DNA of 64,000 nt from Escherichia coli (GTDB lineage Bacteria; Pseudomonadota; Gammaproteobacteria; Enterobacterales; Enterobacteriaceae), in NCBI RefSeq assembly GCF_030384885.1, contig NZ_CP128613.1, one strand, 5' to 3'. A program made the translations under genes and the position numbers. The notes under the pieces were generated by a model, which did no database searches, was not told where the DNA came from, and saw only the letters and a program-made list of their open reading frames with translations. Of the stretch, positions 4,147-11,327 are shown in pieces. The stretch's first letter is position 1; each line of letters begins with the position of its first letter.

Positions 4147-5475
4147 TTAACGGCCTTTAGCCAGATATTGCTTCATCTCTTCTTCCGGCACCATTCCACC
4201 TCCTGTCGCCCACACCAGATGAGTGGCATTACGCAGTTGTTCTGTGCTGAAACCTTGCATCTGTTGGTAAATTACTGATGCGCACACGCGCTGAGGCCCG
4301 GCCATACCCGCCAGTGCTGAAGGCTCAAGACGAATGTCTTCTTCCTGCGCCAGCCAGCCAAGCATGTCATACATGGTTTGATCGCTAAGGGTATAGAAGC
4401 CATCCAGCAGACGCTCCATTGCCCGCCCGACAAAGCCTGATGCGCGACCAACTGCAAGGCCATCCGCGGCGGTAAGGTTGTCGATACCAATATCCTGAAC
4501 AGAAATCTGATCGTGTAATCCAGTATGGACGCCTAACAGCATACAAGGGGAGTGCGTGGGTTCGGCAAAAAAGCAGTGAACATGATCGCCAAACGCCAGT
4601 TTAAGCCCGAATGCGACGCCACCAGGACCACCGCCAACGCCACACGGCAGATAGACAAACAGAGGGTTATCAGCATCGACAATACGACCTTGCTCGGCAA
4701 ATTGCGCTTTAAGACGCTGGCCTGCGACGGAATACCCAAGGAACAACGTGCGGGAATTCTCGTCATCAATAAAGAAACAGTTCGGGTCAGACTGCGCTGC
4801 TTTACGTCCTTCCTCGACGGCAACCCCATAATCTTGCTCATATTCCACGACCGTAACGCCATGGCTGCGCAGTTTCGCTTTTTTCCATGCCCGGGCATCA
4901 GCAGACATATGTACTGTCACCTTAAAGCCAATGCGGGCGCTCATAATACCGATTGATAACCCCAGATTTCCGGTTGAGCCCACAGCAATGCTGTATTGGC
5001 TAAAGAACTGCTTAAACTCCGGAGAAAGCAGTTTGCTGTAGTCATCTTCAAGCGTCAGCAACCCTGCTTCCAGAGCCAGTTTTTCTGCATGTGCCAGGAC
5101 TTCATAAATCCCGCCGCGTGCTTTTATGGAGCCGGAAATAGGCAAATGGCTATCTTTTTTCAGTAACAGTTGCCCGCTGATCGGTTGCTGATATTCCTTT
5201 TCCAGCCGTTTTTGCATAGCCGGAATGGCAACCAGTTCTGATTCAATAATCCCTCCAGAGGCAGCCGTTTCAGGAAATGCTTTTGCCAGATAGGGGGCAA
5301 AACGAGATAAGCGCGCATGGGCGTCCTGAACATCCTGTTCGGTCAGGCCAACATAAGGTAAACCTTCAGCCAATGAGGTCGTGCCAGGATTGAACCAGGT
5401 GGTTTCTTTAAGAGCAACCAGATCCTTTACCAACGGATACTGGGCGATGAGCGAGTTCATTTTAGCGTTTTCCAT
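4147..5475 (-). CDS. dsdA: D-serine ammonia-lyase (D-serine dehydratase), PLP-dependent
   Basis: 442-aa ORF recognised as DsdA. Confidence 0.95.
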
Positions 5476-5675
5476 AGTATGTCTCTTTGCGCTTCGATGA
5501 TAAATGACAGCAGGAATGTGCCCGCCAGAGCGACGACTGAAGCGATAAATGTCGCTGTCGTATAGTATTTATATGTTTCACTGAGCGTAGCGCCGCAAAA
5601 TTGTTTCATCAGCCAGAAAAACGAGTCCGTAACGATCGTGCAGCCAATCGCAATAATTTCCGGGCTGATGTCTGG
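5457..5675 (-). pseudogene. dsdX: 3' remnant of dsdX (GntP-family D-serine transporter), about 72 codons
   Basis: Minus-strand frame translates ..[45 protein letters not shown].., typical GntP-family C-terminus; the frame is closed by stops upstream of about 5675; exact 3' end and overlap with dsdA start uncertain. Confidence 0.55.
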
Positions 5676-5931
5676 TTACAGCCACAGCACAATGATCCAT
5701 ATTTATATTTTTTCTCCGGGTGGGTGATGCCAGTCGGCATGTTTTACCTACTTGTCTGCATGGTGACTCGTTGGCGAGAACAGAGGCGGAATTGGTTACA
5801 ATTGTCCGGGAATTCTTGTTATTTTTTACTGTATTGTCGTGTCGGGTGATAGGACGTTAAGAATATCGCTGGATCTCGCCAGTGACGTCTGTTTCTGCTA
5901 CAGTGCCCGTTTTACGGCAAACGGCTTGGGT

Positions 5932-6927
5932 ATGGCTTCATTAAAGGATGTCGCACGCCTGGCGGGAGTGTCGATGATGACTGTCTCCCGGGTGATGCAT
6001 AATGCAGAATCTGTGCGTCCTGCAACGCGTGACCGCGTATTGCAGGCAATCCAAACCCTGAATTATGTTCCTGATCTTTCCGCTCGTAAGATGCGCGCTC
6101 AGGGACGTAAGCCGTCGACTCTCGCCGTGCTGGCGCAGGATACTGCTACCACTCCTTTCTCTGTTGATATTCTGCTTGCCATTGAACAAACCGCCAGCGA
6201 GTTTGGCTGGAATAGTTTTTTAATCAATATTTTTTCTGAAGATGACGCTGCCCGCGCGGCACGTCAGCTGCTTGCCCTCCGTCCGGATGGCATTATCTAT
6301 ACTACAATGGGACTGAGGCATATCACGCTGCCTGAGTCTCTGCATGGTGAAAATATTGTATTGGCGAACTGTGTGGCGGATGACCCAGCGTTACCCAGTT
6401 ATATCCCTGATGATTACACTGCCCAATATGAAGCAACACAGCATTTGCTCGCGGCGGGCTATCGTCAACCGTTATGCTTCTGGCTACCGGAAGGTGCGTT
6501 GGCAACAGGGTATCGTCGGCAGGGATTTGAGCAGGCCTGGCGTGATGCTGGACGAGATCTGGCTGAGGTGAAACAATTTCACATGGCCATAGGTGATGAT
6601 CACTACACCGATCTCGCAAGTATACTCAATGCCCACTTCCAGTCTGTAAAACCAGATTTTGATGTTCTGATTTGTGGTAACGATCGCGCAGCCTTTGTTG
6701 CTTATCAGGTTCTTCTGGCGAAGGGGGTACGTATCCCGCAGGATGTCGCCGTAATGGGCTTTGATAATCTGGTTGGCGTCGGGCATCTGTTTTTACCGCC
6801 GCTGACCACAATTCAGCTTCCACATGACATTATCGGGCGGGAAGCTGCATTGCATATTATTGAAGGTCGTGAAGGGGGAAGGGTAACGCAGATCCCTTGC
6901 CCGCTGTTGATCCGTTGTTCCACCTGA
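5932..6927 (+). CDS. cscR: LacI-family repressor of sucrose genes, CscR
   Basis: 331 aa from MASLKDVARLAGVSMMTVSRV (HTH) with periplasmic-binding-fold body; the ORF-track start at 5839 is probably an upstream extension. Confidence 0.9.
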   Translation: MASLKDVARLAGVSMMTVSRVMHNAESVRPATRDRVLQAIQTLNYVPDLSARKMRAQGRKPSTLAVLAQDTATTPFSVDILLAIEQTASEFGWNSFLINIFSEDDAARAARQLLALRPDGIIYTTMGLRHITLPESLHGENIVLANCVADDPALPSYIPDDYTAQYEATQHLLAAGYRQPLCFWLPEGALATGYRRQGFEQAWRDAGRDLAEVKQFHMAIGDDHYTDLASILNAHFQSVKPDFDVLICGNDRAAFVAYQVLLAKGVRIPQDVAVMGFDNLVGVGHLFLPPLTTIQLPHDIIGREAALHIIEGREGGRVTQIPCPLLIRCST

Positions 6928-6934
6928 TATTATG

Positions 6935-9498: not shown

Positions 9499-9569
9499 TG
9501 AGAAATAAACGGCGAGGCCGTTCTTGTCTCTGAATAGGACGTGAATATTTTAACGACAGGCAGGTAATT

Positions 9570-10817
9570 ATGGCACTGAATATACCATTCAAAAATGTGT
9601 ACTATCGTTTTGCATCCAGTTACTCATTTCTCTTTTTTATTTCCTGGTCGCTGTGGTGGTCGTTATACGCTATTTGGCTGAAAGGACATCTAGGGTTGAC
9701 TGGGACGGAATTAGGTACACTTTATTCGGTCAACCAGTTTACCAGCATTCTATTTATGATGGTCTACGGCATCGTCCAGGATAAACTCGGTCTGAAGAAA
9801 CCGCTTATCTGGTGTATGAGTTTCATCCTGGTCTTGACCGGACCGTTTATGATTTACGTTTATGAACCGTTACTGCAAAGCAATTTTTCTGTAGGTCTAA
9901 TTTTGGGGGCGCTCTTTTTTGGCTTGGGGTATCTGGCGGGCTGCGGTCTGCTTGATAGCTTCACCGAAAAAATGGCACGAAATTTTCATTTCGAATATGG
10001 AACAGCGCGCGCCTGGGGATCTTTTGGCTATGCGATTGGCGCGTTCTTTGCTGGCATATTTTTCAGTATCAGTCCCCATATCAACTTCTGGTTGGTTTCG
10101 CTATTTGGCGCTGTATTTATGATGATCAACATGCGTTTTAAATATCAGGATCAGCAGTGCGTAGCGGCAGATGCGGGAGGGGTAAAAAAAGAGGATTTTA
10201 TTGCAGTTTTCAAGGATCGAAACTTCTGGATTTTCGTCATATTTATTGTGGGGACGTGGTCTTTCTATAACATTTTTGATCAACAGCTCTTTCCTGTTTT
10301 TTATGCAGGTTTATTCGAATCACACGATGTAGGAACGCGCCTGTATGGTTATCTCAACTCATTCCAGGTTGTACTCGAAGCGCTGTGCATGGCCATTATT
10401 CCTTTCTTTGTTAACCGGGTAGGGCCAAAAAATGCATTACTTATCGGTGTTGTGATTATGGCGTTGCGTATTCTTTCCTGCGCACTGTTCGTTAATCCCT
10501 GGATTATTTCATTAGTGAAGCTGTTACATGCCATTGAGGTTCCACTGTGTGTCATTTCCGTCTTCAAATACAGCGTGGCAAACTTTGATAAGCGCCTGTC
10601 GTCGACGATCTTTCTGATTGGTTTTCAAATTGCCAGTTCGTTGGGGATTGTGTTGCTTTCAACGCCGACTGGAATACTTTTTGACCATGCAGGTTACCAG
10701 ACGGTTTTCTTCGTAATTTCGGGTATTGTCTGCCTGATGTTGTTATTTGGCATTTTCTTCCTGAGTAAAAAGCGTGAGCAAATGGTGATGGAAACGCCTG
10801 TACCTTCTGCAATATAG
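9570..10817 (+). CDS. cscB: Sucrose:H+ symporter (oligosaccharide/H+ symporter MFS), CscB
   Basis: 415-aa LacY-like 12-TM permease. Confidence 0.92.
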   Translation: MALNIPFKNVYYRFASSYSFLFFISWSLWWSLYAIWLKGHLGLTGTELGTLYSVNQFTSILFMMVYGIVQDKLGLKKPLIWCMSFILVLTGPFMIYVYEPLLQSNFSVGLILGALFFGLGYLAGCGLLDSFTEKMARNFHFEYGTARAWGSFGYAIGAFFAGIFFSISPHINFWLVSLFGAVFMMINMRFKYQDQQCVAADAGGVKKEDFIAVFKDRNFWIFVIFIVGTWSFYNIFDQQLFPVFYAGLFESHDVGTRLYGYLNSFQVVLEALCMAIIPFFVNRVGPKNALLIGVVIMALRILSCALFVNPWIISLVKLLHAIEVPLCVISVFKYSVANFDKRLSSTIFLIGFQIASSLGIVLLSTPTGILFDHAGYQTVFFVISGIVCLMLLFGIFFLSKKREQMVMETPVPSAI

Positions 10818-11252
10818 ACGTAAACTCTTTCCGGTTGTTGTCGATAGCTCTATATCCCTCAACCGGAAAATAATAATACCAAAATGCTTAGCGCGGCTAA
10901 TAATCGCCTAATCCAAACGCCTCATTCATGTTCTGGAACAGTCGCTCAAATGTTCTCAGGATACGCGGTTCGCTGATTTCCAGGAAATTGTCGTAATTCA
11001 GCGACCTGTCCCGTGTATCACGGGCCTGCTAATCCATCAAGGAATGCATTGCGGAGTGAAGTATCGAGTCAAGCCAGATTTCGCGATCAGGATTCTGTGT
11101 GATGATTACATTGCCAGGCCCGGGGCTGTTTAGTCATCGCCGCACAGTGCTGAGATTTCAACCTGTTGCAGGGAAAATGAGTAGATTTAGGGCAAGTGTG
11201 CTGCCAAACCCAACTTTTACGCGGGGAAGGTAGATTTCGTTGGAAGGATAAA

Positions 11253-11327
11253 TGGTGTCCCCTGCAGGAATCGAACCTGCAATTAGCCCTTAGGAGGGGC
11301 TCGTTATATCCATTTAACTAAGAGGAC
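11253..11327 (-). tRNA. argW: tRNA-Arg (argW), 75 nt
   Basis: Minus strand reads GTCCTCTTAGTTAAATGGATATAACGAGCCCCTCCTAAGGGCTAATTGCAGGTTCGATTCCTGCAGGGGACACCA with CCT anticodon loop context and 3' CCA. Confidence 0.93.

Follow-up and report, generated by a model that had tools for sequence, protein, structure and literature searches.

The csc genes for sucrose catabolism are found between dsdA and the tRNA gene argW in a 64 kb stretch of the Escherichia coli contig NZ_CP128613.1, referred to here as the window. The segment is, with high confidence, the E. coli chromosomal csc regulon, which does not use a phosphotransferase system (PTS), in its standard place and standard form. The locus is an intact but ordinary member of an already published system. 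An earlier note, made from the sequence alone, had called the substitution of csc for dsdCX known biology and an established polymorphism, and such variation is indeed in the literature: csc biology and the dsd replacement are reportedly treated by Jahreis in 2002, Moritz and Welch in 2006, Connolly in 2015, O'Boyle in 2020 and Stephens in 2024. The features of the locus, with coordinates, strand and basis for the call, are as follows.

4147–5475, minus strand: dsdA, D-serine ammonia-lyase, 442 amino acids, intact (TIGR02035, 809 bits).
5476–5690, minus strand: 3' remnant of dsdX, 215 bp, codons 374–445 (tblastn with DsdX; NF007395; direct reading).
5691–5814, no strand: left leader of the island, found in csc+ E. 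coli only (left-junction alignment).
5932–6927, plus strand: cscR, LacI-family repressor, 331 amino acids (Pfam LacI, 76.6 bits; Peripla_BP_1, 295.8 bits).
6935–8368, minus strand: cscA, GH32 sucrose hydrolase (invertase), 477 amino acids (TIGR01322, 481 bits; Glyco_hydro_32N and 32C).
8369–8583, no strand: divergent cscA/cscKB control region, 215 bp (operators and CRP site in the sequence).
8584–9498, plus strand: cscK, PfkB-family fructokinase, 304 amino acids (NF006957, 504 bits, cutoff 450; Pfam PfkB).
9570–10817, plus strand: cscB, LacY-family sucrose:H+ symporter, 415 amino acids (PF01306 LacY_symp, 637 bits; TIGR00882, 590 bits).
10897–11115, minus strand: scar of a DUF4942 pseudogene, 3' end with multiple stops (75–78% nucleotide identity to DUF4942 genes).
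11247–11267, no strand: empty attB core GATAAATGGTGTCCCCTGCAG, overlapping the argW 3' end (overlap of blastn high-scoring segment pairs against NZ_CP027579.1; repeat sequences).
11253–11327, minus strand: argW, tRNA-Arg(CCT) (ARAGORN; Rfam tRNA, 63.4 bits).

The gene identities and arrangement given in the earlier note hold. The family models score above their curated cutoffs, and an 8.5 kb stretch can be aligned over its full length to thousands of E. coli chromosomes in RefSeq, O157:H7 among them. Where RefSeq names the aligned genes, the names are cscR, cscA, cscK and cscB, and the order and orientation, cscR(+), cscA(−), cscK(+) and cscB(+), are collinear with annotated E. coli genomes. 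By homology the open reading frames (ORFs) are csc orthologues. The cscR start at 5932 is that of RefSeq in a 100% identical genome; the mechanical ORF begins upstream, at the GTG codon at 5839. The GH32 catalytic motifs WMNDPNG, FRDP and WECPD are all found in CscA. The nearest solved structures are GH32 enzymes for CscA, 7vco being the closest, and LacY for CscB. The argW gene is identical to that of K-12 at 75 of 75 positions, and an Rfam scan of window positions 1–16000 found nothing besides the tRNA. Direct observations of the analysis cover gene content and integrity, the junctions and operators, and the distribution.

The strain CH458 served as the comparator for a typical csc+ E. coli. 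Relative to it, the four csc ORFs are full length, have no indels or stops, and display 97.0–98.7% amino acid identity, with CscR at 97.0% and CscB at 97.6%. Nucleotide differences lie mostly at third codon positions; in cscA they amount to 3.6% overall and 8.8% at third positions. Such a bias is what would be expected under purifying selection.

The divergent control region carries candidate CscR operators. The sequence TGTTAACGTTAAC occurs twice, at 8402–8415 and 8466–8479, and its core, GTTAACGTTAAC, is a perfect 12 bp palindrome. Two occurrences of the operator pattern compare with 0.15 expected in the window. A CRP-consensus site, TGTGATTAATATCACA, is at 8449–8464. Across an alignment of six loci (the window, typical E. 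coli, two further Escherichia lineages and two genomes of Citrobacter amalonaticus), both palindromes are invariant, although overall identity falls to 80%. The CRP-like site is a perfect consensus, TGTGA-N6-TCACA, in the window lineage and TGCGA-N6-TCACA in CH458. This difference could alter catabolite control of csc. The window region matches the description by Jahreis (2002), as summarised in PMC11251922, of two 12 bp inverted repeats together with a Crp site. A consensus promoter scan gave 2 sites vs 8.6 expected and was uninformative.

The proposed roles and regulation of the csc products, as well as the D-serine phenotype considered below, are carried over from published work on EC3132, W and enterohaemorrhagic E. 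coli (EHEC). CscB, as an H+ symporter of the LacY type, would bring in sucrose, and CscA, as a cytoplasmic GH32 invertase, would cleave it to glucose and fructose. The resulting fructose would then be phosphorylated by CscK. CscR would repress both promoters through the two GTTAACGTTAAC operators in the divergent cscA/cscKB region, and the CRP site in the same region would provide catabolite control, with cAMP-CRP (the complex of CRP with cyclic AMP) required for expression. A non-PTS Csc pathway has been described in a published account (PMC11251922).

The earlier note had termed CscA a sucrose-6-phosphate hydrolase. As a label of the GH32 family the term is sound, but a phosphorylated substrate is doubtful in a cluster with no PTS component, and some RefSeq records say 'sucrose hydrolase'. 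Since a LacY-type H+ symporter is present and no PTS component is encoded in the cluster, CscA probably acts on unphosphorylated sucrose. That the enzyme might be a true sucrose-6-phosphate hydrolase operating behind a PTS is suggested by its names, as both TIGR01322 and the closest structure, 7vco, are termed sucrose-6-phosphate hydrolase. The cluster, however, codes for a LacY-type symporter and a fructokinase and has neither EII(Scr) nor a porin; in addition, the published Csc pathway is non-PTS and the 'sucrose hydrolase' label is found among RefSeq orthologues. A PTS-linked role is hardly credible on these grounds. The scr regulon (scrKYABR), known from Klebsiella, pUR400 and E. coli B2, serves the same physiological purpose as csc and likewise combines a LacI-family repressor with a fructokinase and a GH32 hydrolase. 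It differs from csc in having EII(Scr) and the ScrY porin and in that sucrose-6-phosphate is hydrolysed; none of these transport genes is found in the csc cluster.

The csc haplotype leads one to expect slow sucrose use at best for this strain. The description of the strain as a 'sucrose-positive background' in the earlier note was over-inferred, as csc alone usually gives slow growth or no growth on sucrose (PMC11251922). Among csc+ scr− isolates, Stephens et al. (2024) found no fast sucrose-positive strain, and 23 of 29 were slow or very slow (PMC11251922). Five of the 29 did not grow on sucrose, four of these with no visible csc lesion (PMC11251922), and intact csc genes are therefore no guarantee of function. 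These isolates weigh against a functional csc system in the window strain.

This raises the question of whether the csc locus, like those of Shigella, is in decay and no longer functional, so that the strain would use neither sucrose nor D-serine. In addition to the csc+ scr− isolates that fail on sucrose with no obvious csc lesion, csc loci of Shigella are usually inactivated (PMC11251922). There is also decay nearby in the window: the dsdX remnant (dsdX') lacks its stop codon and 21 bp, the DUF4942 gene is a pseudogene, and an IS2 lies in emrK. Set against this, the four csc ORFs are full length with catalytic motifs kept and substitutions mainly at third positions, and neither of the operators is damaged, nor is the CRP site, a perfect consensus here. 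Decay of the locus appears quite improbable, and an intact csc system of ordinary type is the preferred interpretation.

The csc regulon of cscR, cscA, cscK and cscB was reportedly described by Bockmann in 1992 and Jahreis in 2002. The csc systems of EC3132, W and O157:H7 resemble that of the window in the four genes, their order and orientation, the two palindromic operators and the CRP site, as well as in the position between dsdA and argW and in the dsdX breakpoint, with 95–97% nucleotide and 97–99% amino acid identity. The window differs from typical csc E. coli by a 21 bp deletion in dsdX, a lost stop codon and the perfect-consensus CRP site. The divergence of about 4% in the csc allele of the window reflects that of its host lineage.

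The extent of the replacement was determined against a reference strain that is free of prophage at this site and has the order dsdA-dsdX-dsdC-argW. Homology to the dsdCXA-argW reference ends at window position 5689/5690 and restarts at 11251, 2 nucleotides before the argW 3' end. Thus 5.56 kb of window sequence (5691–11250) stands in for 2.37 kb of dsdCXA-type E. coli, which comprise the 5' 1120 bp of dsdX, the intergenic region between dsdX and dsdC, dsdC itself and a 97 bp dsdC-argW spacer. The left junction reads ...CAGCA|CAATGATCC. The leader that follows, 5691–5814, occurs once each in 2691 genomes out of 5426 complete ones of E. coli, and nowhere else; no paralogue was detected anywhere in the E. 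coli genomes searched, and the leader is not present in the csc loci of Citrobacter and Escherichia sp. MOD1-EC7003.

On the dsd side, residues 374–445 of DsdX match window positions 5690–5496 by tblastn, and the NF007395 match to the remnant covers the C-terminal 38 residues. At 5644/5645 the remnant lacks 21 bp that other E. coli have, and since the stop codon TAA is changed to GAA, its frame extends to 5457. No further dsdX or dsdC sequence was found by tblastn across the 64 kb window. That dsdC and the greater part of dsdX are absent, as reported in the earlier note, is confirmed by these breaks and by the tblastn result, neither gene being intact at the locus. The K-12 layout, dsdA-dsdX-dsdC-torI...intS-argW with the prophage CPS-53, is also as the note had stated, and no CPS-53 genes are present in the window. 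Variants of a dsdCXA-argW 'genetic island' are said to have been described by Moritz and Welch in 2006; among these the window, like EDL933, is of the csc type, which lacks dsdC and has a truncated dsdX.

DsdA has 98.2% amino acid identity to typical E. coli DsdA and is free of internal stops, yet dsdA lacks both its activator, DsdC, and the dsdX (operon) promoter. In EHEC, dsdA is reported to be silent in the csc-type configuration (PMC7486766). The silence follows loss of DsdC and the dsdX promoter, and D-serine then has an inhibitory effect and serves as a signal that represses virulence (PMC4366372). Deletions in EHEC that remove cscR bring dsdA under the control of the cscA promoter, whereby D-serine catabolism is regained (PMC7486766). 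In the window, cscA and dsdA are co-oriented on the minus strand with cscR in between, which is the geometry of the EHEC locus in which such deletions re-activate dsdA. By analogy, a lack of D-serine catabolism is predicted for the strain, because its intact dsdA has neither activator nor operon promoter. With DsdC and DsdX missing, the strain probably fails to break down D-serine, which may inhibit it as it does EHEC. In E. coli, restriction to intestinal as opposed to urinary niches has been linked to a trade-off between csc and dsdCX.

The spacer between cscB and argW is 435 bp. It contains a stop-riddled 3' remnant of about 200 bp with 75–78% nucleotide identity to E. coli DUF4942 genes over 10914–11115; its translation is broken, and RefSeq relatives annotate it as a DUF4942 fragment. 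In its full-length form the DUF4942 gene comes last in CP4-type islands, which carry antirestriction, radC-like, yeeU/cbtA and DUF4942 genes. Since the 3' end of the scar faces cscB, csc appears to lie outside the vanished CP4-type island.

Three states are seen between the scar and argW in csc+ genomes. The position is empty in the window and in 1410 genomes. In strain 2013C-4282 it holds a 3.66 kb degraded CPS-53-like remnant flanked by the 21 bp repeat GATAAATGGTGTCCCCTGCAG, and in O157:H7 there is a different, recombinase-bearing island. The 2013C-4282 element (10269–13946 of the NZ_CP027579.1 locus examined) encodes a PACE efflux transporter and a LysR regulator besides torI, a truncated intS and two small ORFs; similarity to K-12 CPS-53 (95–97%) is confined to its ends, and the window represents the precise empty site. 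The interval from cscB to argW has neither prophage nor island in the window, unlike those of K-12 with CPS-53, O157:H7 with its recombinase-bearing island and 2013C-4282 with its 3.66 kb remnant. Phage records show that Stx2a and P22-like phages use the argW site. Occupancy between cscB and argW varies among relatives, and this variation shows argW to be a serially used hotspot. The argW site of the window is now empty and would be open to integration of phages, including Stx2a and P22-like phages.

P22-like and other phage 'complete genome' records (ON470594.1, 1–5729, and three sister records) contain the whole csc at the record end, beside the excisionase end of an argW prophage. The presence of csc in these four records represents either packaging of the type seen in specialised transduction or mis-delimited prophages.

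The earlier note also took the csc replacement to mark an argW-associated integration hotspot. For argW itself the view is upheld, given the three occupancies and the phage records; for the csc block it is not, as att repeats, an integrase and terminal repeats are all missing. The possibility to be weighed is that the block is a recent genomic island which entered at argW by site-specific integration, as a prophage or integrative element would, and displaced dsdCX. The right boundary of the novel DNA is only 2 nucleotides from the argW 3' end, a CP4-type island gene scar lies between cscB and argW, and argW demonstrably serves as a site for other elements in relatives as well as for Stx2a and P22-like phages. 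Moreover, the csc module is present at other chromosomal sites, in C. amalonaticus (yjfF/fbp) and in MOD1-EC7003 (beside lpxP). Searches of the window for a second argW att copy, using a 25-mer and a 16-mer with up to 3 mismatches, matched only argW itself, however, and no integrase ORF was found for the csc block. The two island ends have no direct or inverted repeats of at least 9 nucleotides in common; a 10-mer match would arise by chance in 22% of shuffles. The orientation of the DUF4942 scar puts csc outside, not inside, the island to which the scar belonged.

Base composition does not mark the block as foreign. Compared with 35 other long ORFs of the window, z scores for GC content are −0.05 to +0.11 for cscR, cscA and cscK and −1.9 for cscB (GC 0.43), and those for GC at third codon positions (GC3) are −0.5 to −1.0 for csc, with cscB GC3 normal. 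GC, GC3 and skew gave no foreign-DNA signal in the csc block. Thus, there is no sign of foreign origin, since csc GC and GC3 are within about 1 standard deviation of window genes, the total GC of cscB excepted. The comparison of composition proposed in the earlier note accordingly reveals no anomaly other than the low total GC of cscB. As set out below, csc has diverged as much as the flanking core, and the junction is identical across lineages that are 4–10% apart. Recent site-specific insertion at argW is, on balance, unlikely.

Carriage of csc by plasmids was considered and rejected. Four records labelled as plasmids (4.9, 4.8, 1.4 and 0.37 Mb) contain full-length csc along with chromosomal genes such as dsdA, and in view of their sizes and chromosomal genes they are read as mislabelled chromosomes. 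Real plasmids contain only a different GH32 gene, with about 73% nucleotide identity to cscA.

The csc genes are present in 2641–2691 of 5426 complete E. coli genomes, or about half, and the segment from the dsdX 5' region to dsdC is present in 2772 of the same 5426. The csc leader and the dsdX5'-dsdC segment are nearly complementary in their distribution, and at least 37 genomes have both. Six of the matches to the dsdCX haplotype fall in the 90–95% identity band. The dsdX'/csc breakpoint is identical in three lineages, represented by the window, typical E. coli and strain SCPM-O-B-8794; the last is labelled E. coli but is a separate GTDB species representative and only 90% identical. Between the window and typical E. 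coli, identity is 95.8–96.9% in csc and 96.5–97.1% in the flanks (emrY and dsdA). SCPM-O-B-8794 compared with both gives 89.3–93.5% in csc and 90.4–92.0% in the flanks. The replacement therefore looks old, since csc and the flanking core have diverged in step and one and the same junction is found in all three Escherichia lineages.

One old replacement is favoured over recent site-specific acquisition, as a hypothesis drawn from a small sample. The replacement of dsdCX by csc would have occurred once, long ago, and would since have been inherited or passed on by homologous recombination through the conserved flanks, while the argW site beside csc kept gaining and losing other elements. The dsdA of a typical csc+ E. 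coli is up to 99.6% identical to K-12 dsdA, and this high identity fits haplotype exchange by homologous recombination through the flanks. Perhaps a single csc-for-dsdCX event is older than the separation of E. coli from two or more other Escherichia lineages (about 4–5% and about 10% diverged) and has persisted as a dimorphism of roughly 50:50, i.e. as an old, possibly selectively balanced, trans-lineage polymorphism; this proposal is tentative and is put at somewhat below even likelihood. It is compatible with the identical breakpoint, the equal divergence of csc and flanks in three lineages and the near-complementary haplotypes in the 5426 genomes. Stephens et al. (2024) suggested repeated recent horizontal transfer from E. 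coli for the csc of non-coli Escherichia (PMC11251922). An old single event differs from such transfer out of E. coli.

Two points count against a single ancient origin: it is based on three lineages with one representative each, and old homologous recombination between lineages would yield the same picture. With no att copy, integrase, insertion sequence or terminal repeat present, the original mechanism of insertion is not recoverable. The evidence that the csc/dsdCX dimorphism is of some age and occurs in several Escherichia lineages is the only mildly new angle. The csc locus here serves mainly as a strain marker, and this copy adds only one example from a diverged lineage along with the hint of an old dimorphism.

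A core module of about 5.07 kb (window positions ~5815–10885) is also found in other chromosomal contexts. The csc loci of C. amalonaticus, Citrobacter farmeri and MOD1-EC7003 resemble the window in this module, in gene order and in the invariant operators. The Citrobacter context, ytfRT-yjfF / fbp-mpl, differs from that of the window; there is no dsdX remnant, and the loci examined have no tRNA gene. In MOD1-EC7003, csc adjoins lpxP, again unlike the window, and a dsdX remnant is likewise missing. In E. coli, lpxP and csc/dsd are kept apart by the yfdY...evgAS-emrKY-dsdA block; on the 6.5 kb MOD1-EC7003 contig (positions 1–1436 of the locus examined) this block is not found between lpxP and csc.

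The chromosomal background of the window is itself diverged. Over about 50 kb of syntenic core genes (11247–60422) the window is 93–96% identical to K-12 MG1655, i.e. 4–7% diverged, and relative to typical csc+ E. coli it is 95–97% identical across flanks and csc. The 'non-K-12' background proposed in the earlier note is therefore well founded and if anything understated. About 36 complete RefSeq genomes labelled E. coli carry the window allele at >99% identity. The closest, 2013C-4282 (NZ_CP027579.1), differs by 1 base in about 14 kb aligned; it has no IS2 in emrK and has the 3.66 kb argW element that the window lacks. From these comparisons the strain is read as belonging to a deeply branching E. 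coli lineage about 5% from K-12. The lineage is possibly cryptic clade I, an assignment that we infer.

Other regions of the window also depart from typical strains. A complete IS2 of 1331 bp at 72–1402 interrupts emrK about 90 bp into the gene. It encodes TnpA (946–1356, minus strand) and TnpB (83–988, minus strand), has terminal inverted repeats, and is flanked by a 5 bp target duplication, AGGAG, at 67–71 and 1403–1407. At the yfdF position, in a tract of 34% GC, is a 399 amino acid ORF (13566–14765, minus strand) with no Pfam or NCBIfam match. It is 47 amino acids longer than YfdF of typical strains, and a 141 bp indel lies at 14256–14396. The region of the yfc fimbrial operon, 21993–28528, displays 79% identity to K-12 over 21993–26067, and positions 26068–28528 have no K-12 counterpart in the syntenic region; this suggests a replaced fimbrial or adhesin segment. 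The emrY-dsdA intergenic region (4053–4095) is the least conserved stretch of the locus, with 82% identity and 21 bases that are not found in typical E. coli.

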